A DNA stretch of 33,280 nt, from positions 1 to 33,280 of IMG/VR virus record IMGVR_UViG_2700989274_000006, one strand, 5' to 3'. Every line of letters begins with the position of its first letter. The stretch's first letter is position 1. The translations under genes were made by a program, and so were the position numbers. The stretch is from a virus. Lineage: Duplodnaviria; Heunggongvirae; Uroviricota; Caudoviricetes. Under the pieces are notes generated by a model, which was given only the letters and a program-made list of their open reading frames with translations, had not been told where the DNA came from and searched no databases. Below are positions 1,443 through 27,126 of this stretch, piece after piece.

Positions 1443-1883
1443 ATGGCAACCCCAGCAACTGTATCCATAGAACCCACTCTGGCAGCTATCAGAGCTCGCT
1501 GGTGTATTAATTCAAGTAAAACAACTCAATCCTTTAACGATCCTGCGTCCATGGAAGAGGTTGTCGAGTATCTCAAAGGAACATACTCAGCTCTTCGCAA
1601 GTCTGTCGCATGCGCCAAACTGAAAATTTTACATCTTAAACAAAGAATGCAAAATGCTACTAACTTTCTCGCGCGTCTGATGTCATGTAAAAATCAGGCA
1701 TCCAGATCGCATCACAGTACGGCTAAATCAGCTAAAAGTGCCTTATCATCAGATTCAGGTGATGGTAGTGACCCCGACCCCGAGCCCGAAACGTTTCCTT
1801 CTGCCTTCATTACTACCCCTACTAATTCAATAATGCTTAAAGCTTTCTTTGCCAATATCTCAATCACTGAGGTGGCAAAATGA
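1443..1883 (+). CDS. Hypothetical protein with acidic Ser/Asp/Pro-rich low-complexity tail
   Basis: 146 aa ORF preceded by AGGAGA about 8 nt upstream; its stop overlaps the alpA-like start (ATGA); no recognisable domain. Confidence 0.4.
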   Translation: MATPATVSIEPTLAAIRARWCINSSKTTQSFNDPASMEEVVEYLKGTYSALRKSVACAKLKILHLKQRMQNATNFLARLMSCKNQASRSHHSTAKSAKSALSSDSGDGSDPDPEPETFPSAFITTPTNSIMLKAFFANISITEVAK

Positions 1884-2104
1884 GCGCATTCAAACTCCCG
1901 GATACATCTCAATCACAGCTCATTTCAACAGCTGAGTTAGCTAAAATCATTAGCTACAAATCTCAAACCATTCGTAAATGGCTTTGTCAGGACAAATTGC
2001 CTGAGGGGCTACCTCGCCCAAAACAAATCAATGGCCGCCATTACTGGTTACGTAAAGATGTCCTCGATTTTATAGATACATTTTCTGTACGAGAAAGTCT
2101 GTAA
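1880..2104 (+). CDS. alpA: AlpA-family phage/island transcriptional regulator (excisionase-like HTH)
   Basis: 74 aa; pattern LISTAELAKIISYKSQTIRKWLCQDKLPEGLPRPKQINGRHYWLRKDVLDFI matches the AlpA winged-HTH family; its position just downstream of the integrase is as in CP4-57. Confidence 0.65.
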   Translation: MSAFKLPDTSQSQLISTAELAKIISYKSQTIRKWLCQDKLPEGLPRPKQINGRHYWLRKDVLDFIDTFSVRESL

Positions 2105-4071: not shown

Positions 4072-4698
4072 ATGAAAACATATCAAGGTACTCATGGAGT
4101 ACATATCCTCGAATATCAGATCAAGATTAAAAAATTATTATGTTATTTGACTAACCGTTACCCCAGGTTAACGGCGGTACGTGTCGATCTGCATTATCCG
4201 AAGATAGTCGATAACGGAGACAATATCTGCTGTTTCCCTAATCTTGAACCAGGGGTGATATCCCGAATGCGTGATTCCCTCAGAGCTAAACTGGAGGCTG
4301 ACCGTACCCGTAAGGAGCGTGAAGGTAAACGCATCTACCGTTGCCCTTTATTTATTATATGGGCGAAAGAGTATTCTGAATCAGGTAAATGCCACTATCA
4401 CATTTGCCTGTTGTTCAACAAAGACGCTTACTACCACCTCGGGGATTACGATCAGCACGATAACCTGAGAGGGATGATTACGGGAGCGTGGTACAGCGCC
4501 CTGAGACTGGAGAGAGACGATCACCCAGGTCTGGTCCATTTTCCTGATAACTGTAAGTACGTGCTGGATACCAATAATGCTGACTTCCAGCATAACTACC
4601 AAGCGCTGTTAACCCGACTGGATTACCTCACCAAAGTCGAAAGCAAAGTGTTTGGTGAAGGAGACCGTAACTTCGGCTGTAGCCAAATCGATCTGTAA
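4072..4698 (+). CDS. YfjJ/YagK-like protein (inovirus Gp2-type family)
   Basis: 208 aa; recalled similarity to the CP4-57 YfjJ / CP4-6 YagK family (PRLTAVRVDLHYP, CHYHICLLFNKDAYYHLG); position after int-alpA is as in CP4-57; family assignment is from memory, not a search. Confidence 0.5.
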   Translation: MKTYQGTHGVHILEYQIKIKKLLCYLTNRYPRLTAVRVDLHYPKIVDNGDNICCFPNLEPGVISRMRDSLRAKLEADRTRKEREGKRIYRCPLFIIWAKEYSESGKCHYHICLLFNKDAYYHLGDYDQHDNLRGMITGAWYSALRLERDDHPGLVHFPDNCKYVLDTNNADFQHNYQALLTRLDYLTKVESKVFGEGDRNFGCSQIDL

Positions 4699-4707
4699 GT
4701 CGGCAAT

Positions 4708-4737
4708 GGCCTTCTCTTTGTGGGAAGGCCTATTTTA
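4708..4737 (+). terminator. Rho-independent terminator downstream of the YfjJ-like gene
   Basis: GGCCTTC (4708-4714), 9-nt loop, GAAGGCC (4724-4730), followed by TATTTTA. Confidence 0.55.
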
Positions 4738-4785
4738 CGTCAGAGTTCAATAATATAACCAGCAGATAACCTGCCCCCAGGATCT

Positions 4786-5577
4786 TCAATTTGGTGTGAT
4801 TTTTCCACTTTCAGTCATGATAGCGATTGCTTCGTCGATAGTCTGTGTTGTAAAGAGCGAGTTTTCCCTACAGTCCTTGCGAATCACCTTCCTGTTTTTT
4901 TGCACAGAAATGTTCTCGCACCAAGCTAATGTTTCGGCGGCATGCTTTTCTTCCATGCTAATGTCCAAAAAAGCGAGGCGGCTATCAAGGGATTGCATAT
5001 CCTCATTGACAATTGAAGGACTGGATTCTAGGAGGTTCAAACGGTTTTCAACATCGGCAACCTTGCCTTTCACCTGTGAGACGTCTTCCACCAATTTTTC
5101 ATGTCTGTGGATAGCATCAGCAAGTGCTCGTGAGTTTTGGGCCAATATTTCAGCCATTTGCGCGAGGGCAGATCCTTTTGCTTCTGGCGGTGGTGGATAT
5201 ACTCCATGTTTAGTCAACGATGGTATGACCTCATGGAATAACCATTTTTGAAAGCGCTTACCAGCCGCGCTTCGGTCACTCGACATAACTCGATACAAAC
5301 CTGGTTGGGTGACGAAGATCTCTTTCTGACCTTCAAAAACACCATTTTCAGCATCTGTAGTAATATACTCATCGGGGTCAAGAGCCTGTAATTGCGCCCT
5401 GATTATTCCAGCCATCGATTTTACTGTGTAATCAGCGTTGATTTCTCTATTTTCTTTATTCAGCGTGATTAAAACATCTCGTAGTGAGATATATAGAATC
5501 TCACCAAGTATCAATGTTCTTAGATCACTTTCACCAGTCTCACCACGGTAACATATCTTGGTCAGGTTACTATTCAT
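4786..5577 (-). CDS. BRO-N domain protein (phage antirepressor-like)
   Basis: 263 aa; N-terminal Bro-N signature QPGLYRVMSSDRSAAGKRFQKWLFHEVIPSLTKHGVY; coiled-coil-like C-terminus; GAGGA 4-5 nt upstream of the ATG. Confidence 0.6.
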   Translation of the reverse strand: MNSNLTKICYRGETGESDLRTLILGEILYISLRDVLITLNKENREINADYTVKSMAGIIRAQLQALDPDEYITTDAENGVFEGQKEIFVTQPGLYRVMSSDRSAAGKRFQKWLFHEVIPSLTKHGVYPPPPEAKGSALAQMAEILAQNSRALADAIHRHEKLVEDVSQVKGKVADVENRLNLLESSPSIVNEDMQSLDSRLAFLDISMEEKHAAETLAWCENISVQKNRKVIRKDCRENSLFTTQTIDEAIAIMTESGKITPN

Positions 5578-5632
5578 TGATCCTCACATCGCAAAGTATA
5601 GGCACATTCAAATCAGTATCTTTTTTCCTGTG

Positions 5633-5665
5633 CTGTTCTGAGGTGAGTATATCACCTCAGAACAG
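5633..5665. repeat. Perfect 14-bp inverted repeat with 5-nt loop
   Basis: ctgttctgaggtga (5633-5646) / gtata / tcacctcagaacag (5652-5665); lies between the 3' end of the methyltransferase-helicase-T5orf172 operon and the BRO-N gene start; no U-tract on either strand. Confidence 0.5.
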
Positions 5666-5691
5666 GTGGCCAAATTCGGTGTGTCACTTCA

Positions 5692-6870
5692 CTATGCCTT
5701 CACCAGTTTCGCAGACATGGGGTCATAAACATACCCAATGATGCTACCATCCTTAATACGTGCAACAGCCTCATCGATAACGAATAACGGAACGAGAAAC
5801 CATTCCTCGGGCTGTACTGGATGGCCGAAACGGTCGTTAATGGTAATGTTAAGCCTTGCGGGTGCAAACAACCTGTGAAACAGGTTTTCCATCCGGGTGC
5901 GGTTGATGCCTGCAAGCTTGTATGAAGCTACTACCTCGACCTTCGCTAACAGATAGGTGGAATCGTGTTCCGCATTGGCAATACGCGCCTCTACTTTGCC
6001 GCCAGTCACTCCAATCTTGTGAATGACATCACGATGTTCAGCTACATAAGGGTTATCAGATAGCGAACGCAACACATAAATGGTGCCACTTTCTAGATCG
6101 CTCTCTTCTAGAGCATCGCTGAATAAAGGCCCCATGTCTGGATCGGTAATTCGGCGTGCTGTTTCGTCTTTATACAAAGCACGAACCAGTGACAGCCGAA
6201 GTAGGTTGCTTTCCGTACCATTCGAGTAAATGACACGCAGTCGAGCATCTTTCTTCCCCTGTGGCGAATCGAACTCTTCACCTTCCTCAGCCACATAAGC
6301 CGTTTGACCATCCAGGATGAACCAATGGCCCACTTCAATCGTTGCATACTGTCCAAAAGGTCGGGTCACTCTTAACCCTGAACTTAGATCACTGCGCACC
6401 TGTTCAAATAGCGGTTTGAATGTATCAAAATCCTCGCACGGCTTGCGATCCGCGATCCCTTGTACAGCACGCTTTTCGGAGCTAGCACGAACATGACGCA
6501 AGACTGTGATATCGTCCTCGCTGGTAACATCCGCCAGTTCGGCAGCCAAATTATCGATATCGATAAATTCGTCCGCTGACTCCGCTCCCTCCCCCCCTCC
6601 GGCCAACAAGCCCTGATGATCCAGCGGCTCTAGCAAGGCACGGCAGTCTGGGAGACTGCGTAGCCGGTCGAGCCGCACTGCATAGAGGCGCTCGAAGATC
6701 TCACGATCTTCGCCGTGTTGCGGCGCACGTCCATGTTGGTCAGCGAAGCGCTGGATTTCCTCAAAACCTGCGATGATGCGTTCCTCGCTGGCTGGACGTC
6801 CTTTTTTCTTCTCCGGTGGTGCAAATTCGGCAAGTTCTGCCGCCAAATCGTCTAAATCAGAATTACTCAT
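5692..6870 (-). CDS. T5orf172 (GIY-YIG-like) domain protein, third gene of the candidate defense operon
   Basis: C-terminal motifs GTIYVLRS, HKIGVTGGKVEARI, MENLFHRLF, EEWF match the T5orf172 family pattern; preferred start at 6870 (MSNSDLDD, GGAGGG 5 nt upstream, 8-nt overlap with the helicase stop); the longest ORF extends to 6936. Confidence 0.6.
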   Translation of the reverse strand: MSNSDLDDLAAELAEFAPPEKKKGRPASEERIIAGFEEIQRFADQHGRAPQHGEDREIFERLYAVRLDRLRSLPDCRALLEPLDHQGLLAGGGEGAESADEFIDIDNLAAELADVTSEDDITVLRHVRASSEKRAVQGIADRKPCEDFDTFKPLFEQVRSDLSSGLRVTRPFGQYATIEVGHWFILDGQTAYVAEEGEEFDSPQGKKDARLRVIYSNGTESNLLRLSLVRALYKDETARRITDPDMGPLFSDALEESDLESGTIYVLRSLSDNPYVAEHRDVIHKIGVTGGKVEARIANAEHDSTYLLAKVEVVASYKLAGINRTRMENLFHRLFAPARLNITINDRFGHPVQPEEWFLVPLFVIDEAVARIKDGSIIGYVYDPMSAKLVKA

Positions 6871-8908
6871 AATGTCCCTCCGCCCTAAAACGCATAAACG
6901 CGGCTGCACCTTCTGCAAGGTGCTTTTCCCAGGCATCCGGCGAAGTTAACGATGGGAGGCGTCCACGTTCACGTTTGAATTCAGCAGCACGCTTGGCGAT
7001 CACTTTGGCATCTTCAGGCGTGATCGAGGTACGCTTGGCCGAGATGGCCGCCGCGACCTGCTTCAAGCTATCTTCGCTCATTGTCTTAGCAAGGATGGCG
7101 TAGGCTTCACCAAAGGGATTGATGCGGTCGATAAGATCTATGTCTAAATCGCGTACGTCCATCGCAAAGCGACGCACTCCGTCAATAAGGGCAGTATTGA
7201 GCGTCCCATCGTTCTCGCCGTTGACAATACGCTTAGCCTGCTGCGTGAGATTAAGGGCGGCAATAGCGTGCTGACGCACAGCCTCCTGATCTTCAGCGCC
7301 AAGTTCAGGGTACTTTTCTTTGATGATCTTCCCCATACGAACCTGTGTTAATTCTTCAGGAATGAGCTCTTCGTCGAACAGTCCACGTTCGATGGCGGGC
7401 TTATCTTGCACAAAAGCCGCGATCACTTCATTTAAATCTTCCTGGCAGATGCGTGCCGCCTCTTTGCTCCTGGGCTCGGCAAGTCCCTTAATCTCGATTT
7501 GATACGTCCCTGTCTGCTCATTAACACCAAAATTGCAGTTATCCGGGTCATACCCTCCTTCACCATAATCAAAACCTGGGGTCGGGCCGCTTTCTGGGTT
7601 CTTAGGCTTGAACTCGAAGCGCGGAGCCAATACTTGCTCCATCAGCAGGCTTGCCGCGATGGCTTTCAAGGTATCGTTGACTGCCTCGGTGACTGCCCCC
7701 TCTACAGCATCCGGCTCGGCGATCAGGTTAGTAAACCTTGCGCGGGTTTTACCCGGCGCGTCGCGAGTGGCGCGACCGATGATCTGCACGATCTCAGTCA
7801 GGCTGGCACGGTAACCAACGGTCAACGCATGTTCGCACCAGATCCAGTCGAAACCTTCCTTCGCCATACCAAGTGCAATAATGATGTCCACATAATCACG
7901 GTCTGTCTTCATTTCTGCAGCACGGAGACTTTCCTGAATCTTGCCTTGGCTGGTTGGGTCCACCAGGTCAGCAATACGTAACACGCGTCCATCGAGGCAT
8001 TTGACTAGCTGAAAACCAGTCACAGGATCCGCTCCTTGCCAATCGCCAAGCTCGCCGAGAATGTGCTCCACCTCTTTGATTTTATCCTTCGTGCTCTCGC
8101 GCGAATTGACGTTGGGAATATGGATAATGGTCTTCTTGTCAGGATCGAGTACATTGAGGATGTCATCGACGTAGGAGCCACTGTAGAAGAAGTAGCCGAT
8201 ATCGAGTTGCTTGAGGTATTCGTAGCCGTTAAGTTGTTCGTAGTAGGTGTAGGTGACGGTATCGAACCTGGACTCATCCTGAGGAGCCAACACGGCCTCC
8301 GCATCACCCCGGAAGTAGGATCCGGTCATGGCAACGATGTGCGTCTTGTCCCGCGCGATAAACTGCCCCAGCTGCTGACCAAGCTTATTATCCGGGTTAG
8401 CTGACACATGGTGGAATTCATCGACCGCGATCAGGCGATCGTCAAACGCTTCTATACCGTAGGCATCGACCGCGAAGCGAAAGGTTGCGTGTGTGCAAAC
8501 AAGCACCTTGTCACTACTTTCAAGAAAAGAGCCAAAAGATCTTACCTTGCCACCGTTGTCGTTACCGGGCGCGTTGCACAGGTTCCACTTAGGTTCGACA
8601 TGCCAATCAGTCCAGAATCCAAACTGCGATAGCGGTTCATCGTTGAAGCTCGCGCCGATAGATTTTTCCGGCACAACGATGATTGCCTGTTTAATCCCTT
8701 GATTTTCGAGTTTGTCGAGTGCGACGAACATCAGAGCACGACTCTTACCGGAGGCGGGCGGCGACTTGATGAGAAGATATTGTTCTCCGCGCTTCTCATA
8801 GGCCCTTTCTTGCATAGGCCGCATCCCAAGAGCATTAGCCTTGGTCGATGCTCCGCTGCGTGAGTAGGTAACGGAAACGGACGGTACTGATTTAATCTTG
8901 TTGCTCAT
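6863..8908 (-). CDS. SF2 DExH-box helicase/translocase (type III restriction Res-like ATPase)
   Basis: 681 aa; Walker A SPPASGKS, motif II VDEFHH, motif III MTGS, motif VI QIIGRATR; ~250 aa C-terminal extension of unknown function; start overlaps the methyltransferase stop (ATGA). Confidence 0.8.
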   Translation of the reverse strand: MSNKIKSVPSVSVTYSRSGASTKANALGMRPMQERAYEKRGEQYLLIKSPPASGKSRALMFVALDKLENQGIKQAIIVVPEKSIGASFNDEPLSQFGFWTDWHVEPKWNLCNAPGNDNGGKVRSFGSFLESSDKVLVCTHATFRFAVDAYGIEAFDDRLIAVDEFHHVSANPDNKLGQQLGQFIARDKTHIVAMTGSYFRGDAEAVLAPQDESRFDTVTYTYYEQLNGYEYLKQLDIGYFFYSGSYVDDILNVLDPDKKTIIHIPNVNSRESTKDKIKEVEHILGELGDWQGADPVTGFQLVKCLDGRVLRIADLVDPTSQGKIQESLRAAEMKTDRDYVDIIIALGMAKEGFDWIWCEHALTVGYRASLTEIVQIIGRATRDAPGKTRARFTNLIAEPDAVEGAVTEAVNDTLKAIAASLLMEQVLAPRFEFKPKNPESGPTPGFDYGEGGYDPDNCNFGVNEQTGTYQIEIKGLAEPRSKEAARICQEDLNEVIAAFVQDKPAIERGLFDEELIPEELTQVRMGKIIKEKYPELGAEDQEAVRQHAIAALNLTQQAKRIVNGENDGTLNTALIDGVRRFAMDVRDLDIDLIDRINPFGEAYAILAKTMSEDSLKQVAAAISAKRTSITPEDAKVIAKRAAEFKRERGRLPSLTSPDAWEKHLAEGAAAFMRFRAEGHYE

Positions 8909-11712
8909 GCATTAGTTCTCACTTTACGCTTCTTGCCTTTGGCCGGTGCAGCAGAAGCGGCCATCTTTATATAAAGATCAAATAGCTTTTCAAGCCGCTC
9001 TGTATCATTCTTAAAGCGACGGCCGATGTAGATGCGCTCCAGTACTTCATCATTGCGATCATGCGCAGCCCGCAGATCAGTAGGCATGTTAGCAGGATCG
9101 TATAGGTCCGCGATGGTCGCGGGAAAATGATGCTCACGCGCCAGAAGTATGTCCTCCGCGCAGCGTGTGAGGTCAGCCTTGTTTTTTTCTGTGAGTTTTG
9201 GTACTGGGAAGGTGTTCCAGCCGAGGGTGTTAGAGTAGCGGTAGCGTGTTTCCAATTTTCCGCAGATGGTGGCGATCCAAACCAGGTGTAGACGAGATGC
9301 AATGAGCGCAAGATTCCAGAGCGGAGCGTCGTAGAGAGCAAAGGCGAGGTTACTGACTACCGAATGATTATCAATCAGTCCAACAGGAAGATACTCGCGC
9401 CCTTCCGATGAAACCCCCGGTAGAATCAGCGTGTGCTTGCCACCGTGATACATTTCGCGAAACTGATGAGCCCGTGATGCTAACTCATTCGTACCAGCAT
9501 CTTTACTTTTGAGCCGCATTTCCCGAACGCCATCAATCCGACCCCGAATAGACGCAATCTCCAAAGCTTGCGGCAATTTTACATCAGGGATCCAGAGGCA
9601 CTTACGTACTACTCCGCGAATAAACTCGGCAGAACCATAGATGCGCCGAAGAAATGTCTCTTCATCCTGCTTGCTCAAACCGAGCGAAACCGCGTCATCC
9701 GCCGATAACAAAAGATTTCCCCCATCGACGGGCATGTTGCCAAAAGACATATCCGGCAGACCCGATATGCTCTTGCGCTGGCCCTCGACTACAACATCCT
9801 CACCAACACTCAGATAGGGCGTGATGTTTGTCGCCTCGCGTACAGTAGTTTGGCCATTGCGGTCCAAGTCGTAAAGTAGCCTTGTCTTACTCACATCCGT
9901 AGATAGGCCGACGATAGCGACTGTTACACCCGCGTTGTGTGCAGCAAGGTTCGTCCATTTGAAGCTGGAGTGCGCGAAGCGAATGTGGGAGCCACATTTG
10001 AAAATTGCTGGCCACAGGATAGGAACAATTCGGCCTTGACAGATAGAGTTGGTGCTAACAAAAGCCGAATCCGTTGGTGTGGCTTGCGCGTAGGCAGCAG
10101 CTTTCATGAACCAACCACCAACATAATCGATTTGTTTAGACGAAATACCATAAGGTTCAAATACCGAAGCCAAATCCGCTTTCTGCTCTTTAGTCTGCGT
10201 TTGGCTACCTTTGTAAGGTGGGTTACCACAGATGTATGTCTCCCCACCTTCGTTCTGAAAGCCAATCTCTGCTTGACCGAGAGGCGTCTCAAAGAGGTTA
10301 TCTGCCTGCAACTTCACGCCAATTCCGGACGGAGGGCAAACGCTCAACCAATCAATCCGCAATGCGTTGCCACATGTAATCCAATTATCATTACGCAGAG
10401 GAAGAAACTCGGCCAGTGCAAGTTTTAGTCCCCGGTACACCACATCGCACTGATACTCAGCAATAACTAGCGCGAGACGGGCAATCTCCGCAGGGAAATC
10501 TCGTATTTCGATCCCGCGAAAGTTGGTAAGAGGGATGTCAGAGGCATTATCCATCTCGCCACGTCGTCGATTAATCTCGGCCTCGATGGCTCGCATTTCC
10601 TTGTACGCAATCACTAAGAAGTTGCCAGATCCACATGCTGGGTCGAATACGCGGATTCGGGCCATACGCTTGCGCAGATTGAGCAGCATGCGCGGATTGT
10701 CACCGGCTTCATCCAGTTTCGCCCGCAGTTCGTCGAGGAATAGTGGGTTAAGCACCTTGAGTATATTGGGGACACTAGTGTAATGCATTCCCAACTCACC
10801 ACGCTCTTCGTCTTCGGTAATGGCCTGAATCATCGAGCCGAATATGTCTGGGTTGATTTTGGTCCAATCCAGATTGCCAACATGTAGAAGATAGGATCGC
10901 GCAATACGGCTGAAGCGCGGTACCTCCTCACTTCCCGAGAAAAGAGCGCCGTTTACATAAGGAAACTCAGCAGCCCAACGCGGGATACCGACAACACTTC
11001 GCTCATCGCGTGGGGTGTTCATTGCACGAAACAACGTGGCGATGACCTCGTGCAAATTAGAAGCGTCGCGCTCACTCATCTGCGCAATAGTGTCAGTAAA
11101 GCGCCCCTTGCCTATAAATATGTCAGTGTCTTCGGCGAAAAAGCAGAAAATTAGACGCGCCATGAACTTGTTCATGTCATGACGACGCCCCGAAGTACCC
11201 CATTCAGGATTGTCTTTTAACAGTTCGACGTACAGGCGGTTCAAACGGCTAGTAGCACGGATGTCAAAGGCGTCTTCGCTGATCTGCCGAACAGTGCTGA
11301 TACCTGCCAATGGCAAAAAGAAGCCGAAGTGATCGGGAAAGTCTTTAAAGGCACAAGCCACAGTCTGACCACTGTTGAGGTCCTCGGCTTCAAAGTATTT
11401 GCCGTCCGTGGCAAGGATGAATTTCGCCTTGGCCTTGCCTGTTGCCGGGCTGGCCTTAAGTGCAGCCAGCATCTGTGTGACTTGGCCCCCTTCACTGGCC
11501 AGAATGTGGATGTTGTTTGTCTGAAGAACACCACCCAAGTCGGACTTATTCGATGCCCCGGCGCGCAGACGTTTGATGGTCGTTTCCTTGTTACCAAAGG
11601 CTTCAAGAAAAGCATAAGGAAACTCTATAGGATCAAAGGGTTGTTCCGCAAGATCCGTGATGGCTTGCTCAATTTCTACGGCGTTCATTTGCGTACAGTT
11701 CTCCATTGGCAT
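8905..11712 (-). CDS. MmeI-family (type IIG/IIL-like, YeeA-like) N6-adenine DNA methyltransferase, apparently without endonuclease motif
   Basis: 935 aa; SAM motif I FDPACGSGNFLV, catalytic motif IV GNPPY; further MmeI-family blocks MARLIFCFFAEDTDIF, LGMHYTSVPNILKVLNPLFLDEL; no PD-(D/E)xK seen in the N-terminal ~120 aa. Confidence 0.85.
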   Translation of the reverse strand: MPMENCTQMNAVEIEQAITDLAEQPFDPIEFPYAFLEAFGNKETTIKRLRAGASNKSDLGGVLQTNNIHILASEGGQVTQMLAALKASPATGKAKAKFILATDGKYFEAEDLNSGQTVACAFKDFPDHFGFFLPLAGISTVRQISEDAFDIRATSRLNRLYVELLKDNPEWGTSGRRHDMNKFMARLIFCFFAEDTDIFIGKGRFTDTIAQMSERDASNLHEVIATLFRAMNTPRDERSVVGIPRWAAEFPYVNGALFSGSEEVPRFSRIARSYLLHVGNLDWTKINPDIFGSMIQAITEDEERGELGMHYTSVPNILKVLNPLFLDELRAKLDEAGDNPRMLLNLRKRMARIRVFDPACGSGNFLVIAYKEMRAIEAEINRRRGEMDNASDIPLTNFRGIEIRDFPAEIARLALVIAEYQCDVVYRGLKLALAEFLPLRNDNWITCGNALRIDWLSVCPPSGIGVKLQADNLFETPLGQAEIGFQNEGGETYICGNPPYKGSQTQTKEQKADLASVFEPYGISSKQIDYVGGWFMKAAAYAQATPTDSAFVSTNSICQGRIVPILWPAIFKCGSHIRFAHSSFKWTNLAAHNAGVTVAIVGLSTDVSKTRLLYDLDRNGQTTVREATNITPYLSVGEDVVVEGQRKSISGLPDMSFGNMPVDGGNLLLSADDAVSLGLSKQDEETFLRRIYGSAEFIRGVVRKCLWIPDVKLPQALEIASIRGRIDGVREMRLKSKDAGTNELASRAHQFREMYHGGKHTLILPGVSSEGREYLPVGLIDNHSVVSNLAFALYDAPLWNLALIASRLHLVWIATICGKLETRYRYSNTLGWNTFPVPKLTEKNKADLTRCAEDILLAREHHFPATIADLYDPANMPTDLRAAHDRNDEVLERIYIGRRFKNDTERLEKLFDLYIKMAASAAPAKGKKRKVRTNA

Positions 11713-11993: not shown

Positions 11994-13316
11994 TTAAAAC
12001 GTATTAAGGTTGCACCGAATATGGTTTTCCCCGCTGACCCTGACCCGATTGACTGTCCAGTCAGCTATGACGTCAAGCACATGACGAAGGTAGCTTTCTG
12101 GATCCACGCCGTTTAGTTTGCACGTCCCGATCAGACTGTACATCAGCGCTACACGCTCACCTCCGTGGTCTGAGCCGAAGAACAGCCAGTTTTTTCTCCC
12201 CAAACTGACCATCCGCAGCGCATTTTCAGCGATGTTGTTATCGGCTTCTGTCCAGCCATTGCCTGCATAGTGCGTCAGGGCCGGCCACTGGTTAAGGGCG
12301 TACGCGAACGCTTTCGCCAGCTCTGAGTGTCGTGACAGGGTGTTCATCTTTTCACGCAGCCAGCTTTCCAGGGATTTCAGCAGCGGTTTCGCTTTCTGCT
12401 GACGTTCAGCAAGACGTTGCTCCGCCGGCATTCCCCTTATTTCCGCCCCGATGGCATACAACCCGCCGATACGCTTCAGGGCATCCTCCGTCAGCGCCGA
12501 CGGCGTGCGGGCGTACACATCGTGGATTTTACGGCGGGCGTGAGCCCAGCAGGCGGCTTCCGTTATCTGGCCACCGCGGTACAACTCGTTGAATCCTGCA
12601 TACGCATCCGCCTGCAGCACTCCCCTGAAGCCGGCAAGATGGGTCTGCGGGTGGATGGCTTTTCTGTCCGGGCTGTAAGCGAACCACACCGCCGGTGCGA
12701 CTGCTGACCCGGCGTTGCGGTCATCACGAACGTACTTCCACAATCGCCCGGACTTCGTCTTCTTATTGCCCGACAGCAGCATCTGGACCGGGGTATCATC
12801 GACATGGAGTTTGCCGTCGCTCAGGACATAGCCCCGAAGCGCCTCCTCCAGCGGTGACAGCAGCCTGCAGCATGCATCCACCCAGCCCGACAGGAGGGAG
12901 CGGCTCAGTTCCACACCCTGGCGGCTATATATTTCAGACTGGCGGTACAGCGGGGTATGCTCTGCATACTTTGAGCCCAGTACCCGGGCCAGCAGCCCCG
13001 CTCCGGCGATACTCCGCTCGATGGGACGTGAAGGCGCGGGGGCCTGCACGATAGCGTCGCATTTTGTACAGGCGTGTTTTTCCCGCACGGTCCGGATAAC
13101 CCGGAAGGCGCTGCGCATCAGCTCCAGCTGTTCAGCAGTATCTTCACCCAGCCAGCGCAGTGAATCGCCACAGTCCGGGCAGCATGATGCCGCCGACAAC
13201 AGCCGTTTTTCGTCACGAGGGAGTGATTCGGGGAACGGTTTACGGGTGCGGGTCTGGCGAAGCGACCACGCTCCAGCCGTTTGGTCAGCAGACACAGCCT
13301 GTCGCCGGTAGACCAC
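11994..13316 (-). CDS. tnpC: IS66-family transposase TnpC (N-terminus likely truncated)
   Basis: 440 aa; conserved IS66 TnpC blocks LPRDEK, CPDCGDSLRWLGEDTAEQLEL, IVQAPAPSRPIERSIAG, HTPLYRQSEI; only ~26 aa precede the LPR motif whereas family members usually carry a longer N-terminal zipper region. Confidence 0.8.
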   Translation of the reverse strand: MVYRRQAVSADQTAGAWSLRQTRTRKPFPESLPRDEKRLLSAASCCPDCGDSLRWLGEDTAEQLELMRSAFRVIRTVREKHACTKCDAIVQAPAPSRPIERSIAGAGLLARVLGSKYAEHTPLYRQSEIYSRQGVELSRSLLSGWVDACCRLLSPLEEALRGYVLSDGKLHVDDTPVQMLLSGNKKTKSGRLWKYVRDDRNAGSAVAPAVWFAYSPDRKAIHPQTHLAGFRGVLQADAYAGFNELYRGGQITEAACWAHARRKIHDVYARTPSALTEDALKRIGGLYAIGAEIRGMPAEQRLAERQQKAKPLLKSLESWLREKMNTLSRHSELAKAFAYALNQWPALTHYAGNGWTEADNNIAENALRMVSLGRKNWLFFGSDHGGERVALMYSLIGTCKLNGVDPESYLRHVLDVIADWTVNRVRVSGENHIRCNLNTF

Positions 13317-13486
13317 AGCAATTTTACCTGACTGCCACTGCAGCCCCGGAAGATGAAGACTTGGCCGGACATCGGGTCGTCTTTCAGTGCCGTCTGCACT
13401 TTTGCCGCCAGCCCGTTGAAGCCGTTGCGCATGTCGGTGATACCGGCAACCAGCCAGATTTTAGTGCCTGCAGGAAGATTTATCAT
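13118..13486 (-). CDS. tnpB: IS66 Orf2 (TnpB)
   Basis: N-terminal WLVAGITDMRNGFNGLAAKVQ ... KRLERGRF is the IS66 OrfB signature; the C-terminal tail looks atypical and overlaps the tnpC start by ~200 nt, consistent with a frameshift or deletion. Confidence 0.75.
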   Translation of the reverse strand: MINLPAGTKIWLVAGITDMRNGFNGLAAKVQTALKDDPMSGQVFIFRGCSGSQVKLLWSTGDRLCLLTKRLERGRFARPAPVNRSPNHSLVTKNGCCRRHHAARTVAIHCAGWVKILLNSWS

Positions 13487-13866
13487 ACAGTCCCTCGCAT
13501 CAGTTCGCGCAGGACAGTGGTGATGAGTTCAGTTGAGGGATGAGTCAGTGTTATATCTCCGCCCCGACATTTTATGTGACAGGCAGTCTGAGGTGAACAG
13601 GATGGCGGTTCGGGCGTTGGGGGAGATGGCTCTGCCCGAAATTGCACGGGTATGAGAGCAGGAAGCGACGATGCGTTTTTCCGTGGGTGGCAGACCCGCC
13701 CTTCACGTTGCCAGAGCCTTATCCATTTAAAGAGCAGGTTGTCATTGACATCATGTTGTCGGGCCAGCGCAGCAACACTTCCTTCTTTTTCAAGTGCCAG
13801 CCTGACCAGTTCCATTTTAAACTCAGGGGAATATCGTTTTCGGGGAAGTCTTTCTTTGGCGCGCAT
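13483..13866 (-). CDS. tnpA: IS66 Orf1 (TnpA, HTH protein)
   Basis: 127 aa; RKRYSPEFKMELVRLALEKEGSVAALARQHDVNDNLLFKW is an IS66/IS3-type N-terminal HTH; stop overlaps the tnpB start (ATGA). Confidence 0.8.
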   Translation of the reverse strand: MRAKERLPRKRYSPEFKMELVRLALEKEGSVAALARQHDVNDNLLFKWIRLWQREGRVCHPRKNASSLPALIPVQFRAEPSPPTPEPPSCSPQTACHIKCRGGDITLTHPSTELITTVLRELMRGTV

Positions 13867-14808: not shown

Positions 14809-15836
<1,028 letters not shown>

Positions 15837-16087
15837 ATTAATATTAAATCGGATTATTTTTAGCGCTGAATGTGAAATTTAAATAAAAAGGACTCTTCCA
15901 TGAGTCAAAATCCTTGAAATCTTAAGGGTAAGATAAAAGGTCATTAGACAGAATGACACGTTTTATTAATAAATAAAGCTATTGTTTCATTCGTGTGTTT
16001 TTCTTTACAAAAGTAATCCTTGCTATGGTTGGTTAATCATGCGTTAATGGTGTTCTGGTTTGTTACAAAATTATCTGAAGCAGTCAT

Positions 16088-16096
16088 TGTTATAAT
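16088..16096 (+). promoter_or_regulatory. Extended -10 element (TGtTATAAT), candidate promoter for the csp gene
   Basis: tgttataat at 16088-16096, about 105 nt upstream of the csp ATG, which would give the long 5' UTR typical of cold-shock genes; no good -35. Confidence 0.3.
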
Positions 16097-16199
16097 TTTA
16101 TTATTTGTACCTCTTGAGATTTCCTTGTTGGTTTTTCTCTCTGATATTTTTTTTCGGACCATTCTGCCCAAGGGCTAACTTCTTCAAAAGGTAATAATG

Positions 16200-16412
16200 A
16201 TGTCTAACAAAATGACTGGTTTAGTGAAATGGTTTAACCCTGAAAAAGGTTTTGGTTTCATCACGCCGAAAGATGGTAGCAAAGATGTGTTTGTCCATTT
16301 CTCAGCTATTCAGAGCAACGATTTCAAAACGTTAACTGAGAATCAGGAAGTCGAATTTGGTATTGAGAACGGACCTAAAGGCCCCGCGGCTGTTCATGTT
16401 GTGGCACTTTGA
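16200..16412 (+). CDS. cspI: CspA-family cold-shock protein (CspI-like, prophage-borne)
   Basis: 70 aa; [38 protein letters not shown] contains the RNP1/RNP2 motifs; the sequence matches my recollection of E. coli Qin-prophage CspI. Confidence 0.85.
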
Positions 16413-16611
16413 GGTAGAAAATATTACAAACCATATTCACTTTAGATGCCCGTGTTGCCATGGTTCTCAGTATAGAACATCATCTTTTGATGTTTCTGAC
16501 AGGAATCCTTTCGGGGCAAAATGTATCTTTTGTAAATCAATGATGATTACATTTGATAATATTTCACAATACTTAAATGTTAGCCGTCTATCGTTAGATT
16601 TAAGAAAGTGA
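16396..16611 (+). CDS. Possible small zinc-ribbon protein
   Basis: CPCCHG...(21 aa)...CIFC pairs of Cys; ATG at 16396 overlaps the csp 3' end; no clear RBS; ends 7 nt before a strong terminator. Confidence 0.25.
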
Positions 16612-16618
16612 AAATGAA

Positions 16619-16640
16619 GGCTCCTTCGGGAGCTTTTTTG
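16619..16640 (+). terminator. Rho-independent terminator (UUCG tetraloop)
   Basis: GGCTCC-TTCG-GGAGC followed by TTTTTT. Confidence 0.7.
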
Positions 16641-16723
16641 CTTAGTGTCTAGTCGATGGATACTCACATATTACGGTAACATTATGAAAAAAAATAATAG
16701 TTTTTTTTAACTCTGAACCAGCA

Positions 16724-16915
16724 ATGGTAGTGCCAGTGATGACCGGAGTTAACACCATCATGCGTGAATATCCAAATGGCGAAACAACACACCTCACTGT
16801 AATGGCTGCAGGGTTTCCATCTCTGACCGGAGATCATAAAGTCATTTATGTAGCAGCGGATCGACATGTAACTTCAGAAGAAATTCTGGAAGCAGCAATG
16901 AGACTCTTGAATTGA
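16724..16915 (+). CDS. Hypothetical small protein
   Basis: 63 aa ORF; no recognised motif. Confidence 0.3.
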   Translation: MVVPVMTGVNTIMREYPNGETTHLTVMAAGFPSLTGDHKVIYVAADRHVTSEEILEAAMRLLN

Positions 16916-17084
16916 TTTGATTCTAATGCATTGATAATAAATGATAATCATCTTTATCTGTTTGTGTGAAATTTAGACCGTCGTATGTTGATTATTGCGA
17001 TGTTTCATCTTATCTTTTATACGTTTGCTCCATATAATTGACACTACTGTGTACCAGGAAAGTCATAACAGACTAAAAGAGGAA

Positions 17085-17261
17085 ATGATGAACATTGAAG
17101 AGTTAAAAACAAAAACAGAAGCAGATATTTCTGAATATATAACAAAAAAAATCATTGAGCTTAAGAAAAAGACCGGGAAAGAAGTTACCAGTATCCAGTT
17201 TACTGCACGGGAAAAAATGACTGGTCTTGAAAGCTATGATATCAAGATTGATTTAATCTAG
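17085..17261 (+). CDS. GnsA/GnsB-family protein (prophage moron)
   Basis: MMNIEELKTKTEADISEYITKKIIELKKKTGKEVTSIQFTAREKMTGLESYDIKIDLI matches the Gns family; AAGAGGA upstream of the ATG at 17085. Confidence 0.7.
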   Translation: MMNIEELKTKTEADISEYITKKIIELKKKTGKEVTSIQFTAREKMTGLESYDIKIDLI

Positions 17262-17554
17262 TCTGTTTAGTATTAGCATCAATTTCTCATCAGATGCTAT
17301 TCAACAATACAAATTACCCATAAACCTCGTTTTTACGGGGTTTTGTTATATTTAAACATTACCGAATAGGTATAAATCTCGATTGTCGATGGTATTGGTT
17401 GTGTGACAATACCTAGTCTTTCCGGTATGCCTGAAGAGAATACAAACGACAGATTATGTAAGGGAAACGCGCTGAATCTTTAACTCTTTCATGCTGAGTG
17501 ATTTGACGTTATATTTTTAGCCGTAAGTGAAGAGCAAACGCATGGAGCGACAAA

Positions 17555-17761
17555 ATGCATAAAGATCAATACACTGATGCCCCCTCCCAGGAGCAGGTTC
17601 GTGTAAAAACTATGCTTAATAGCACCATTTCGATGGGTTACCCGGATGTTGTAATTGCATGTATAGAACATCAAGTGTCTCTGGAAGCATTCAGGGCAAT
17701 TGAGGCCGCGTTAGTAAAGCACGATAAGAATACGAAGGATTATTCCCTGGTGGTTGACTGA
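17555..17761 (+). CDS. Hypothetical small protein
   Basis: 68 aa ORF with GGAG 8 nt upstream of the ATG; no recognised motif. Confidence 0.4.
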
Positions 17762-18127
17762 TCACCATAACTGCTAACCATTCTGACCATTTCACAAGTG
17801 ACAGAGTCAATATCGTATTCTGTCACTGTCAGGCTAATACAGCAATGCAATTCAACTACAGCAATGCCTCGTATTTAGGTGAATTTACAATATCGTCCAG
17901 TTCGGATGCCGGCTGCATTTCTGAAGATAAGGCATTTCGGTTCTCGTATTTTCCCCTCATGCTCGTCAGTCCTGCGCGTAGTAAGAAACAGGACACTCAC
18001 ACTAATTTGTGTGGGCATGCTGTGATGTCCTTCTGAATTATCCCCATGCCATTATGTAAAGCTCTGTTTCAGATGCTCGTCACGGTTGTCAGGCTGTCGG
18101 GTCCTCCCAGTGGGGGTCCCTGCCACG

Positions 18128-18139
18128 GGGCGGGAGCGT
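18128..18139 (+). other. Candidate cosN cohesive-end site of the prophage
   Basis: acg-GGGCGGGAGCGT-cgcgg closely resembles lambda acg-GGGCGGCGACCT-cgcgg (9 of 12 positions, identical flanks); lies 196 nt upstream of the Nu1-like ATG at 18324, versus ~190 nt in lambda. Confidence 0.55.
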
Positions 18140-18323
18140 CGCGGAAAAAGGCTAGTTTTTGCATTTCCATGGCGGCGGCAGCATGTTTGGTAATTTATTG
18201 ATAATTAAAAGTTATTTCTCTTTTCAGCTGTACAATATTTTTTTCTCCCTGTCATTAGACTAGTTTGCAATTAATTGAAATATATAAATAAACCTGATTT
18301 TCACCTGCCAGATGGAGTTGCTT

Positions 18324-18851
18324 ATGTCAAATGTGAGCGGGATCGGTGATGCTTATTACTGGAGTGTTTTTAAAATCGCCGAGGCCTTTGGGCTTCACTG
18401 GGACACAGTAAAAAAACGGCTCCTCGCGGCCAACACTCCTGTGGCTGCGACTGTCAGGGGGAACCCCGTTTACGCCCTGCAGCATGTCGGGCCTGCCCTG
18501 TTTAGTGTGAAGCATGAGGCAGCAGACTCTGTTCATGATCCATCCCGTATGGAGCCGAAAGAGAGAAAGGACTGGTACCAGTCGGAAAATGAAAGGATCA
18601 AGCTGGAAAAGGAGCAGCGAAAACTCATCCCCGTTGATGAAGTAGTCATCGTCTATTCGTCCATGAGAAAGGCTGTCGTCCAGGTTCTGGAGACAATTCC
18701 GGATGTTCTTGAACGCGATTGCGCCCTGACTCCTCAGGCCGTTGGCGTTGTACAGCAGGCCATTGATGACCTGCGATACACTCTTCAGGAAAAATCCTAC
18801 GAGGCTTGTGCTGCTGAATTAATTCCTGATGAGGAAGGAGAGAGTCTCTAG
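18324..18851 (+). CDS. Terminase small subunit (Nu1-like)
   Basis: N-terminal winged-HTH-like pattern similar to lambda Nu1; immediately upstream of the large terminase; an alternative ATG at 18312 is in frame. Confidence 0.65.
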   Translation: MSNVSGIGDAYYWSVFKIAEAFGLHWDTVKKRLLAANTPVAATVRGNPVYALQHVGPALFSVKHEAADSVHDPSRMEPKERKDWYQSENERIKLEKEQRKLIPVDEVVIVYSSMRKAVVQVLETIPDVLERDCALTPQAVGVVQQAIDDLRYTLQEKSYEACAAELIPDEEGESL

Positions 18852-18859
18852 GAGGAATA

Positions 18860-20959: not shown

Positions 20960-21168
20960 ACCAGAATGATATCGAAGCCATGATTCAGCGTTATACGGAA
21001 GCTGAAATGGCGGTGCTGGACGGAAAATCCGTCACCTTTAATGGTCAGCAGATGACCATGGAAAACTTATCTGAGATCCGGCAGGGACGGCAGGAGTGGG
21101 AGCGCCGCCTTGCGGCTCTGATTACACGACGACGGGGGCATCCCGGGTATCGGCTGGCGAGGTTCTGA
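20956..21168 (+). CDS. Head-tail joining protein (lambda W-like)
   Basis: 70 aa; GGAGGA RBS; size, position and C-terminal RRRG motif resemble lambda gpW. Confidence 0.65.
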   Translation: MNQNDIEAMIQRYTEAEMAVLDGKSVTFNGQQMTMENLSEIRQGRQEWERRLAALITRRRGHPGYRLARF

Positions 21169-24648: not shown

Positions 24649-24671
24649 ACGTCGCAGACAACAACTCTGAT

Positions 24672-24691
24672 GGCCCGTAAGGGCTTTTTTT
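24672..24691 (+). terminator. Weak intrinsic terminator after the capsid gene
   Basis: GGCCC-GTAA-GGGCT followed by a T7 run; short stem. Confidence 0.4.
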
Positions 24692-24734
24692 GTACCTGAA
24701 ATCAGCCCCTGAACGGGGCTGTGCGGAGACAGTT

Positions 24735-25058
24735 ATGGCAAAGAATTTTGTAGAAGAAGGAAAAACGGTGGCGATTGTTGCCAGTGCAGCCATCAGCAGC
24801 GGAGATCTGGTGCAGGTGGGTGATGTTTTTGCGGTGGCGCTGACCGATATTCCACAGGGTGAAACAGGCGACGGCATGACCGAAGGTGTGTTTATCCTGC
24901 CTAAACTGAAAACGGATGACATGAAAACGGGTAAGAAGGTTTATCTGAAGTCCGGAAAAGTTCAGCTGACTAACAGCGGCTCTGATCCGCTGGTCGGGGT
25001 TGTCTGGGCAGATGCCGGAACCAGTGCAGAAGAAGTGCCGGTAAAACTCAATGTCTGA
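24735..25058 (+). CDS. Putative head accessory/decoration protein
   Basis: 108 aa ORF directly after the capsid gene; assignment is by position and a vague recollection of a DUF2190-type family only. Confidence 0.35.
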   Translation: MAKNFVEEGKTVAIVASAAISSGDLVQVGDVFAVALTDIPQGETGDGMTEGVFILPKLKTDDMKTGKKVYLKSGKVQLTNSGSDPLVGVVWADAGTSAEEVPVKLNV

Positions 25059-25326: not shown

Positions 25327-25337
25327 AGAGGTGTGGG

Positions 25338-26314: not shown

Positions 26315-26319
26315 AGGAG

Positions 26320-27069: not shown

Positions 27070-27089
27070 CAGGACGATACTCATCATTT

Positions 27090-27113
27090 GCCCCGGTTAT
27101 CCGGGGCTTTTTT
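27090..27113 (+). terminator. Strong intrinsic terminator between V and G
   Basis: GCCCCGG-TTAT-CCGGGGC perfect 7-bp stem followed by TTTTTT. Confidence 0.7.
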
Positions 27114-27126
27114 GCAGGTGGAGAAC

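Follow-up and report, generated by a model that had tools for sequence, protein, structure and literature searches.

Morgan et al. (2009; PMC2731913) described a 'second group' of MmeI-like methyltransferases whose genes invariably lie beside those of a YeeB-like helicase and a YeeC-like GIY-YIG protein, and predicted that the second-group methyltransferase and the YeeB-like and YeeC-like proteins act together as a restriction system. Two experimental reports disagree on whether such YeeA/YeeB/YeeC-type systems provide defence. In Vibrio crassostreae, yeeAB conferred phage resistance, whereas no restriction or phage defence was seen for the cluster of B. subtilis, in which deletion of yeeB or yeeC left phage sensitivity and transformation unchanged (Fernandez et al. 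2023, PMC9973331). Since these deletions were without effect, phage defence is not universal for the architecture; the inactivity of the B. subtilis version has been attributed to stretches missing from YeeB and YeeC. The published literature searched contained no biochemical data on the nuclease activity of any YeeC protein.

The operon and its products

The gene analyzed here is a copy carried by an E. coli island. In the window, i.e. the whole 33,280-nucleotide stretch of DNA that was analyzed, it is the third gene of an operon in which methyltransferase, helicase and nuclease genes follow one another in a single orientation.

8905 to 11712, minus strand: YeeA/DnmA-like MmeI-family DNA methyltransferase; 935-aa ORF (927 aa in RefSeq) with Pfam MmeI domains
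6863 to 8908, minus strand: YeeB-like SF2 helicase, 681 aa; Pfam DEAD and ResIII, with a conserved C-terminal extension of 260 aa
5692 to 6870, minus strand: YeeC-like gene, 392 aa; predicted N-terminal adaptor region and C-terminal T5orf172 nuclease domain
5695 to 6087, minus strand: predicted T5orf172/MUG113 (GIY-YIG-type) nuclease domain, aa 262-392 of the YeeC-like protein

Minus-strand translation from 6870 to 5692 yields a product beginning MSNSDLDD, and an identical RefSeq CDS exists (WP_041520800.1, 'GIY-YIG nuclease family protein'). The ATG at 6870 is preceded, 6 nt upstream, by a GGAGGG Shine-Dalgarno-like box and overlaps the helicase stop by 8 nt. A longer in-frame ORF reaching up to 6936 lies inside the helicase gene and has no homolog support. 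The gene order is kept in nearly all of the 80 related loci, from many phyla, that reach far enough upstream, as well as in 5 distant loci and a Moraxella plasmid. In related loci the helicase end adjoins or overlaps the YeeC start. Two metagenomic ORFs (P0267 and P0223) in which the end of the helicase runs into the beginning of YeeC were considered as a 'Rosetta stone', and set aside as apparent artefacts of frameshift or gene calling. Judged by architecture and published descriptions, the operon is a YeeA(DnmA)/YeeB/YeeC-type restriction-like system; such systems are already known and the present copy is a further member. In annotation pipelines its three products appear only as a 'type IIG' methyltransferase, a helicase and a GIY-YIG protein, and none of the PADLOC models covers the YeeC-like nuclease.

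The translated helicase contains the motifs GKS, DEFHH, TGS and QIIGRATR. The methyltransferase matches the Pfam families MmeI_N, MmeI_hel, MmeI_Mtase, MmeI_TRD and MmeI_C, the last four with E values from 3e-17 to 9.5e-113, and its FDPACGSGNF and NPPY motifs are intact. In a phmmer comparison its residues 96-329 align to residues 108-333 of MmeI (5hr4) and its first 95 residues remain unaligned. As the match to MmeI begins only at residue 96, the methyltransferase is without the region that carries the PD-ExK nuclease in MmeI.

The initial annotation had recognized a T5orf172 signature in the last ~110 residues of the YeeC-like protein, and this assignment is borne out by two Pfam matches above their gathering scores: T5orf172 (PF10544) over aa 262-372 (E 3.7e-11, 43.9 bits against a cut-off of 20) and MUG113 (PF13455) over aa 284-372 (E 1.9e-13, 51.2 bits against a cut-off of 22.3). 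A T5orf172 / GIY-YIG family profile is also matched by 53 of 55 diverse YeeC homologs, whose alignment shows conserved polar residues in the C-terminal domain. GIY-YIG fold matches of this domain are weak though consistent. The protein had further been called the least understood component of the operon, which is a fair description, and its likely effector. The latter proposal is supported: because the methyltransferase is devoid of the PD-ExK-bearing region of MmeI (PMC2731913), the YeeC-like protein is the most likely nuclease effector.

Acidic motifs and the GRxP module

The N-terminal ~250 residues had been left unassigned. It is true that they match no well-characterised domain; however, the region is not one blank, and five parts can be discerned in it: a first acidic motif, a three-helix module, a second acidic motif, an LRHVR element and a folded alpha/beta domain. 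They are given below together with the helicase module discussed further on.

6823 to 6861, minus strand: acidic motif 1, aa 4-16, SDLDDLAAELAEF; helix 6-14 modelled, pLDDT ~60
6622 to 6792, minus strand: three-helix 'GRxP' module, aa 27-83, EERIIAGFEEIQRF..HGRAP..EIFERLYAVRL; pLDDT ~90
6526 to 6564, minus strand: acidic motif 2, aa 103-115, IDIDNLAAELADV; helix 105-113 modelled, pLDDT ~49
6487 to 6510, minus strand: D-I-T-x-L-R-H-V-R element, aa 121-128, 9-16 aa after motif 2
6136 to 6444, minus strand: central alpha/beta domain, aa 143-245; a long helix, then a predicted SH3/Tudor-like beta-barrel
6866 to 7057, minus strand: helicase C-terminal module, helicase aa 618-681, ..AAEFKRERGRLPS..DAWEKHLAEG..; probably homologous to YeeC aa 27-83

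The duplication of the acidic motif is real and not due to chance. As initially annotated, two copies stand about 100 residues apart; their exact spacing is 99 aa, and they share 8 of 13 residues, including the run LAAELA. The local self-alignment of the protein scores 52, compared to 28.7 +/- 5.0 for shuffled sequences (n=2000), of which 3 reach 52. Both motif positions are kept in homologs at 34-65% identity, within a family that comprises more than 1,300 clusters at 50% identity. Of 58 full-length cluster representatives, 34 contained exactly two matches to a 12-column PSSM of the motif (threshold at the 1% per-protein level in shuffles), 19 a single match and 5 none; three matches never occurred, and the matches were always located at ~aa 2-13 and 96-133. 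Most representatives with one match or none show variant motifs by eye. The same PSSM had no match in the helicase or the methyltransferase of 47 related loci. The helicase element DLDIDLIDRINPF was considered as a third copy and rejected: it receives no PSSM score and is unchanged in lineages where the YeeC motifs change.

Motif 1 and motif 2 of one protein are more alike than copies taken from different proteins (mean score of 31.3 compared to 21.2, a value of 31.3 being reached in none of 10,000 permutations), although this co-variation is confounded by phylogeny, as motif subtypes track subfamilies. Examples of such pairs are DDALLEELGVE with DDDALLEALGVE, GILDDILDGDDGLL with DIDGILDADDGLL and, in Moraxella, SLADILANDNNGLL with SIDDILRMDNRGLL. 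Both motifs belong to one subtype in 39 of 48 sequences (the window and 47 related loci), and any signal between motif subtype and helicase or methyltransferase columns follows phylogeny. At the DNA level the copies are identical at 26 of 39 positions and differ in synonymous codons. Thus selection acts on the peptide, and recent gene conversion was rejected as the source of the similarity.

AlphaFold models both motifs as short helices, with pLDDT values of 46-62 around them against ~90 in the neighbouring domains. Their common pattern is hydrophobic-x-x-D-D-L-L/A-x-x-L. The best-conserved positions are hydrophobic (L9, A10 and L13 in motif 1; L108, A109 and L112 in motif 2), and the conserved acidic positions stand directly before this hydrophobic face. 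The linkers vary in length (13-26 aa) while the positions of the motifs are retained. The initial annotation had suggested a docking peptide, for example for the helicase. An amphipathic helix with conserved hydrophobic residues in a variable, acidic linker of low pLDDT is the anatomy of an interaction peptide, and a docking role is plausible on these modelled features; it is also in keeping with the conservation of the repeats and with an N-terminus free of well-characterised domains. As to the target, the data may fit the helicase, the methyltransferase, DNA or the protein itself alike. The conserved motif pair is absent from the published descriptions of YeeA/YeeB/YeeC systems that were consulted and looks new.

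Following motif 2, L124 and V127 of the LRHVR element are near-invariant in 55 diverse sequences, and the element has a low pLDDT in the isolated chain. No confident structural relative was found for the central domain, aa 143-245. The three-helix module, in turn, was matched by profile-profile comparison to aa 618-681 of the helicase (probability 94%, P 1.4e-7), whereas ten control segments of the helicase gave probabilities of at most 1%. With smaller alignments, hhalign returned a probability of 68.7% (P 4.6e-5). When an HMM of the YeeC module was run with hmmsearch against all window ORFs, the helicase was not significant, nor was the reverse search. A GRxP helical module of ~45 residues is therefore probably common to the helicase C-terminus and the nuclease N-terminus, the homology being graded probable, not certain, because it is seen by profile-profile comparison only. 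Below their cut-offs, Pfam HNH_repeat matches the YeeC module (E 0.036, 14.9 bits against 26) and Pfam PMBR the helicase module (17.1 bits against 24.9). A profile of the helicase module also matches the PMBR repeats of the pseudomurein endoisopeptidase 8z4f_B with an E value of 6.3e-6 that is summed over four weak stretches. The HNH_repeat and PMBR likenesses are similarities at the motif level only. Compared to the descriptions of YeeA, YeeB and YeeC that were consulted, both the shared GRxP module and the SH3/Tudor-like central domain look new.

A proposed docking model and alternatives

The reading that we favour, with modest confidence, makes the YeeC-like protein the nuclease subunit of a restriction-like defence system of the YeeA(DnmA)/YeeB/YeeC type, which would comprise three proteins, depend on methylation and be driven by ATP; the acidic helices would serve as docking elements. 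By analogy with what is established for members of its family, the MmeI-family methyltransferase would recognise an asymmetric site and methylate one strand of the host DNA. The SF2 helicase would act as a DNA translocase, and the YeeC-like protein would provide the T5orf172 (GIY-YIG-type) cutting domain lost by the methyltransferase. Its first ~140 residues would constitute a flexible adaptor made of two tandem units, each led by an acidic amphipathic helix, which is followed by the three-helix GRxP module in unit 1 and by LRHVR and the SH3/Tudor-like domain in unit 2. The acidic helices would become folded as they bind and hold the nuclease to candidate partners, among which the helicase is the likeliest because the two genes overlap and the module is shared. 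Since the motif copies co-vary, the sites that both helices bind are probably equivalent; these could be the two homologous GRxP modules, of which each protein has one, or lie on a dimeric partner.

A more specific arrangement, suggested by analogy and possible but doubtful, is a 'handshake' between homologous helix-plus-GRxP units on both proteins, in which the acidic helices would plug into the two modules, one helix acting in cis and the other in trans. If true, translocase and nuclease would be coupled by analogy with UvrB-UvrC, and the handshake would represent an undescribed assembly principle of split, type ISP-like restriction systems that could be used to rewire nuclease recruitment.

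The data equally allow the motifs to act in trans or to pack in cis, each as the first helix of its tandem unit. In its strict form the latter possibility is a structural repeat: an old tandem duplication of a helix and its following domain would have left a motif that packs on its own unit and has no separate docking role. The constant position of each motif ahead of a conserved element, 13-22 aa before the GRxP module for motif 1 and 9-16 aa before LRHVR for motif 2, is consistent with such a repeat. So is the C-terminal unit of the helicase, where a conserved amphipathic helix, SEDSLKQVAAAIS, occupies the place equivalent to motif 1, and so is a frameshift on an Acinetobacter plasmid that divides the gene exactly between the units, each resulting ORF beginning with a motif copy. 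In favour of a repeat, too, hhalign carries the alignment of the two repeats into the following helices, though weakly (P 0.0025), and the pLDDT of motif 1 (~60) is somewhat above that of motif 2. However, both helices are of low confidence beside domains with a pLDDT of ~90, as would seldom be expected of a helix packed integrally into a fold, and the units that follow the motifs are dissimilar while the motifs track each other closely. Moreover, the extended similarity of the repeats is not significant (probability 4.8%). We regard a purely structural repeat as unlikely.

We consider it quite unlikely that the acidic segments serve as an autoinhibitory DNA mimic that covers the face with which the nuclease or the GRxP modules bind DNA, and that holds the nuclease away from host DNA until a helicase/methyltransferase complex displaces it. 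The best candidate for such a role would be the acidic linker that contains motif 2 (aa 84-122), with its net charge of -12. This extreme negative charge, the disordered flanks, the acidic positions directly before the hydrophobic face and the basic character of the helicase C-terminal module (net charge of +3) all agree with mimicry. However, the motif 1 segment has a net charge of only -2, the top-conserved positions are the leucines and alanines listed above and not acidic residues, and the predicted structure shows no confident docking in cis. Mimicry also overlaps with the docking model and does not exclude docking.

Operons of the YeeA/YeeB/YeeC type are widespread. The YeeC N-terminal region forms more than 1,300 clusters at 50% identity, and homologs are present in 99 of 5,426 complete E. 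coli genomes; among 50,697 phage records, none matched the N-terminal 260 aa. Across Pantoea, Alcaligenes, Pseudomonas, Stenotrophomonas and Enterobacter the protein retains 79-99% identity, and 227 plasmids carry homologs, a pattern indicative of recent horizontal transfer under selection. It is very unlikely that the operon is a decayed restriction system, with a methyltransferase that is now an orphan regulator (as proposed for B. subtilis DnmA) and YeeC motifs without current function in E. coli: the B. subtilis deletions without phenotype, the IS66 element that precedes the methyltransferase start by ~280 bp in the window but is absent in two close strains, and the clearly decaying Acinetobacter copies would fit this reading, but the three ORFs are intact, catalytic motifs included, the spread across five genera and onto plasmids suggests selection, and Vibrio yeeAB defends.

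The result is an incremental refinement of a known family and does not define a new kind of system. The motif pair and the shared module nevertheless offer concrete point mutants for probing the three-protein assembly, and suggest where to look for the cause of the inactivity in B. subtilis.

Comparison with known systems

The B. subtilis YeeA(DnmA)/YeeB/YeeC cluster and the present operon agree in gene content and order: in each, an MmeI-family methyltransferase without a PD-ExK end is followed by a DEAD-type helicase and then by a protein whose C-terminal domain is of the T5orf172/GIY-YIG type. Both are horizontally acquired and located in mobile or defence islands. The E. coli copy is only distantly related to the B. 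subtilis cluster and is set beside it on the basis of architecture and descriptions. With MmeI (type IIL), the methyltransferase shares the helical spacer, methyltransferase, target-recognition and C-terminal domains (E 1e-17 to 1e-113). However, MmeI carries its own PD-ExK nuclease and is independent of a helicase, and the methyltransferase of the window diverges over its first ~95 residues.

In nucleotide excision repair, a small helical domain present in both UvrB and UvrC recruits a GIY-YIG nuclease to a helicase-fold ATPase. This UVR domain is a helical hairpin. It has no sequence relationship to the GRxP module, and the analogy is confined to the sharing of a module by both partners. The phage T5orf172 nucleases, ICP1 Odn and the T5orf172 homing endonucleases, have the C-terminal catalytic family in common with the YeeC-like protein and take their specificity from an N-terminal module (PMC8263062, PMC10448857). 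Unlike the YeeC-like protein, they are stand-alone, sequence-specific enzymes.

In the type ISP enzymes LlaGI and LlaBIII, too, a nuclease and an SF2 translocase are joined to a gamma-class adenine methyltransferase and a target-recognition domain, and these enzymes act on asymmetric sites of which one strand is methylated. They are likely a functional analogue of the present operon. However, a type ISP enzyme is one chain in which the helicase is fused to an Mrr/PD-ExK nuclease at the N-terminus, whereas the present operon consists of three separate ORFs with a GIY-YIG-type nuclease and thus falls outside type ISP. Three separate proteins need non-covalent tethering, the role that we propose for the acidic helices.

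The YeeC-like gene and its operon

Translation of the minus strand from 6870 to 5692 yields a single gene encoding a 392-aa YeeC-like protein with the N-terminus MSNSDLDDLAAELAEF. The start codon, the ATG at 6870, has GGAGGG ahead of it, and there is an 8-nt overlap with the upstream gene at its stop codon. An identical coding sequence is found in RefSeq for other E. coli genomes (WP_041520800.1, 'GIY-YIG nuclease family protein'). A longer in-frame ORF reaching 6936 was rejected as the start, being located inside the upstream gene and devoid of homolog support. As stated in the initial annotation, the C-terminus carries the T5orf172 signature: the Pfam families T5orf172 (aa 262-372, E 3.7e-11) and MUG113 (aa 284-372, E 1.9e-13) both match above their curated cut-offs. 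T5orf172 proteins of phage ICP1 are functional nucleases (PMC8263062, PMC10448857). YeeC is the probable effector, as had been suspected; the same proposal dates from 2009.

The gene is the third and last of a minus-strand operon in which stop and start codons overlap. The first gene encodes an MmeI-family methyltransferase of 935 aa (Pfam MmeI_N, MmeI_hel, MmeI_Mtase, MmeI_TRD and MmeI_C) with intact FDPACGSGNF and NPPY motifs. Its alignment to MmeI (5hr4) starts at residue 96, and the PD-ExK-bearing segment of MmeI is therefore missing. The second encodes an SF2 helicase of 681 aa (DEAD and ResIII; motifs GKS, DEFHH, TGS and QIIGRATR) with a highly conserved C-terminal extension of 260 aa. 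PADLOC labels the methyltransferase 'type IIG'; its models do not cover the nuclease. Read at the sequence level, the operon is intact, and its genes for a methyltransferase devoid of nuclease, an ATPase and a GIY-YIG-type protein are inherited together.

A search with YeeC aa 1-262 against 1.84 billion representatives at 50% identity returned 1,379 proteins with E <= 1e-3, 924 of them with E <= 1e-10. The T5orf172 C-terminus accompanies this N-terminal region in 53 of the 55 sequences of a diverse alignment. Homologs with 79-91% identity occur in Pantoea, Alcaligenes, Pseudomonas, Stenotrophomonas and Enterobacter, and related copies are carried by 227 plasmids. None of 50,697 phage records matched the N-terminal 260 aa, and no description of the region was found in the published literature searched.

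Genomic setting

The order methyltransferase, helicase, YeeC is kept in nearly all of 80 loci from many phyla that extend far enough upstream, in five distant loci whose proteins share 38-51% identity, and on a Moraxella plasmid. The helicase gene of related loci runs up to the start of the nuclease gene or into it. In many of these loci the methyltransferase and helicase genes are separated by a variable insert of 1-2.7 kb (4302-5756 of locus L005; 3260-3778 and 4088-5542 of L019; 2138-4488 of L089), unlike in the window, where one gene overlaps the other without any insert. Among the genes inserted are those for a 484-aa Schlafen AlbA_2 and HATPase_c_4 protein, with or without Fic-like_C, and a zeta-toxin-like P-loop ORF. 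The Moraxella insert includes RelB/YafQ genes together with DUF4433 and macro-domain genes, the latter two DarTG-like.

In E. coli the operon lies in a CP4-6-like island present in 99 of 5,426 complete genomes, with the gene order intF, yagN, ykgV, yagM, yagL, yagK and then a BRO-N gene. Its neighbours in the window are:

4072-4698 (+), yagK-type 'inovirus Gp2 family' gene (YagK_YfjJ_C), adjoining the BRO-N gene
4786-5577 (-), BRO-N/anti-repressor-like gene immediately 3' of the operon (Pfam Bro-N; PHROG 'anti-repressor Ant')
11994-13866 (-), IS66-family element some 280 bp before the start of the methyltransferase gene
14809-30891 (+), lambdoid prophage late genes beyond the IS66 element

In none of the 80 related loci was a BRO-N gene found beside the operon; the gene is therefore part of the E. 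coli island, not of the system. The IS66 element, with ORFs for a DDE_Tnp_IS66 transposase (440 aa), TnpB_IS66 and HTH_Tnp_1, could influence the promoter of the operon. Neither ECC-1470 nor CFSAN051542, both E. coli, has the element here; their next gene encodes a Y-family polymerase. The late genes encode lysozyme, DUF1441, gpA terminase, lambda-type portal, a ClpP-capsid fusion, tail tube and tape measure; the defence island of the window strain therefore abuts a prophage, unlike that of the two reference strains.

On A. baumannii plasmid p5745_2 (5221-7837 of locus L088), near ISAba1 and blaOXA-23, the YeeC homolog is frameshifted into a 95-aa ORF with the first acidic motif and the three-helix GRxP module and a 304-aa ORF with the second motif and the remainder. 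The DDDLGLL motifs that open the two ORFs are nearly identical. With the helicase N-terminally truncated after a copy of ISAba1 and the stretch lacking any annotated methyltransferase gene, the locus is decaying.

Two acidic motifs and a module probably common to YeeC and the helicase

The duplication of an acidic motif near the N-terminus, noticed at the outset, was confirmed by self-alignment and by conservation of both positions, and is clearly non-random. The copies (aa 4-16 and 103-115) are separated by 99 residues, share 8 of 13 residues and have LAAELA in common. Local alignment of the first half of the N-terminal region to the second scored 52, against 28.7 +/- 5.0 for 2000 shuffles, three of which reached 52. 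Both positions follow the same pattern in the 55-sequence alignment, which includes representatives of 34-65% identity: acidic residues, then hydrophobic residues at i, i+1 and i+4, most commonly [DS]-D-D-x-L-L-x-E-L-G-[VI]-[DE].

With a PSSM thresholded at the 1% per-protein level in shuffles, 34 of 58 full-length representatives gave two matches, 19 one, five none and none three, always at about aa 2-13 and 96-133. In 47 related loci, neither the helicases nor the methyltransferases gave a match to the PSSM. When every six-frame ORF in the window was scanned, only one further match appeared, DDKALLADLAVL (score 19.5), probably due to chance:

1715-1912 (-), 66-aa ORF, opposite strand to ORFs 1443-1883 and 1880-2104

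The two copies co-vary inside each protein, with a mean score of 31.3 within and 21.2 between proteins; none of 10,000 permutations reached the observed value, in a statistic that ignores phylogeny.

Co-varying motif pairs (motif 1 / motif 2)
DDALLEELGVE / DDDALLEALGVE
GILDDILDGDDGLL / DIDGILDADDGLL
TLSEIFALDDELGLL / SLDDIFALDDEIL
Moraxella: SLADILANDNNGLL / SIDDILRMDNRGLL
Acinetobacter: DMIADDDLGLL / DIFNDDDLGLL

In the window the motif-coding stretches are identical at 26 of 39 nt and use different synonymous codons at shared residues; the similarity is thus maintained in the protein, and recent DNA conversion is not its source.

An AlphaFold2 model of YeeC was built from the 55-sequence alignment. 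Its mean pLDDT of 81 and pTM of 0.40 indicate well-folded but loosely connected domains.

Predicted anatomy of YeeC
aa 6-14, motif 1 helix (pLDDT ~60)
aa 27-83, three-helix domain (pLDDT ~90)
aa 84-104, disordered linker
aa 105-113, motif 2 helix (pLDDT ~49)
low-confidence stretch after motif 2, strongly conserved DITxLRHVR element (L124 and V127 nearly invariant)
aa 143-245, alpha/beta domain (pLDDT ~90)
C-terminal end, linker, then T5orf172 domain (pLDDT >90)

Spacing is regular from motif 1 to the module (13-22 aa) and from motif 2 to LRHVR (9-16 aa); the linker between module and motif 2 measures 13 to 26 aa. The net charge of aa 84-122 is -12. That the acidic helices are autoinhibitory DNA mimics is a doubtful reading, to which we give little weight.

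The profile of YeeC aa 26-90 aligned to that of helicase aa 618-681 with an hhalign probability of 94% (P 1.4e-7, 42 columns), compared with at most 1% for ten other 64-aa helicase segments; smaller alignments of the two modules gave 68.7% (P 4.6e-5). The common signature is a hydrophobic residue, x-x-F-x-x-x-x-G-R-x-P, five to six more residues and D-x-[FW]-E-[KR], as in FEEIQRFADQHGRAP..REIFER and AAEFKRERGRLPS..DAWEK. Since single-profile searches for this likeness were not significant, homology of the modules is considered probable. The helicase module (6866-7057) also matches the pseudomurein-binding repeats of 8z4f_B, an archaeal endoisopeptidase with four repeats, at the level of a motif (F-K-x-x-x-G-R-x-P; E 6.3e-6, summed over four weak stretches), and the YeeC module weakly matches Pfam HNH_repeat (E 0.036), both under the family thresholds. 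These likenesses suggest that Pfam PMBR, HNH_repeat and the GRxP module have one short helical motif in common. At the place equivalent to motif 1, the helicase unit has an amphipathic helix, SEDSLKQVAAAIS, which is conserved. The acidic helices might accordingly be merely the first helices of two tandem units, packed in cis; we regard this as unlikely, if somewhat less so than DNA mimicry.

Proposed assembly and relation to known systems

The N-terminal region of YeeC is flexible and bears two conserved, co-varying, amphipathic acidic helices. Since the two change together, their binding sites are probably equivalent; the two homologous GRxP modules or a dimeric partner are candidates. The docking role first suggested for the motifs, for example to the helicase, is supported in part: it fits their anatomy, with the helicase as a candidate partner. 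We propose that the methyltransferase would mark self DNA and recognise unmethylated sites, that the helicase would translocate and that the T5orf172 domain would cut, and that the acidic helices would become folded on binding and attach the nuclease to the complex.

In its architecture the operon is of the YeeA/YeeB/YeeC type. A second group of MmeI homologs, which lack PD-ExK and are 'invariably' flanked by genes for a DEAD helicase resembling YeeB and a GIY-YIG-motif protein resembling YeeC, was described by Morgan et al. (2009; PMC2731913). These authors proposed that the three proteins cooperate in restriction in the manner of a type I system, with methylation of a single strand. YeeA of B. 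subtilis is the m6A methyltransferase DnmA (site GACGAG); deletion of yeeB or yeeC there left phage sensitivity and transformation unaltered, and the authors spoke of a 'relic' (PMC9973331). Resistance of Vibrio crassostreae to one group of phages was lost when yeeAB was inactivated (bioRxiv 10.1101/2021.05.05.442762). That the present locus is itself a relic appears improbable, the least likely of the alternatives. For the relatives, single-strand adenine methylation at asymmetric sites is established, as is defence in one Vibrio strain. The window copy is an added member of this described three-gene system; new at the descriptive level are its pair of motifs, the module shared with the helicase and the central domain, which make the question of assembly testable. 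Functionally, if the proposed mechanism is right, the system would resemble a type ISP enzyme in a split, GIY-YIG version.
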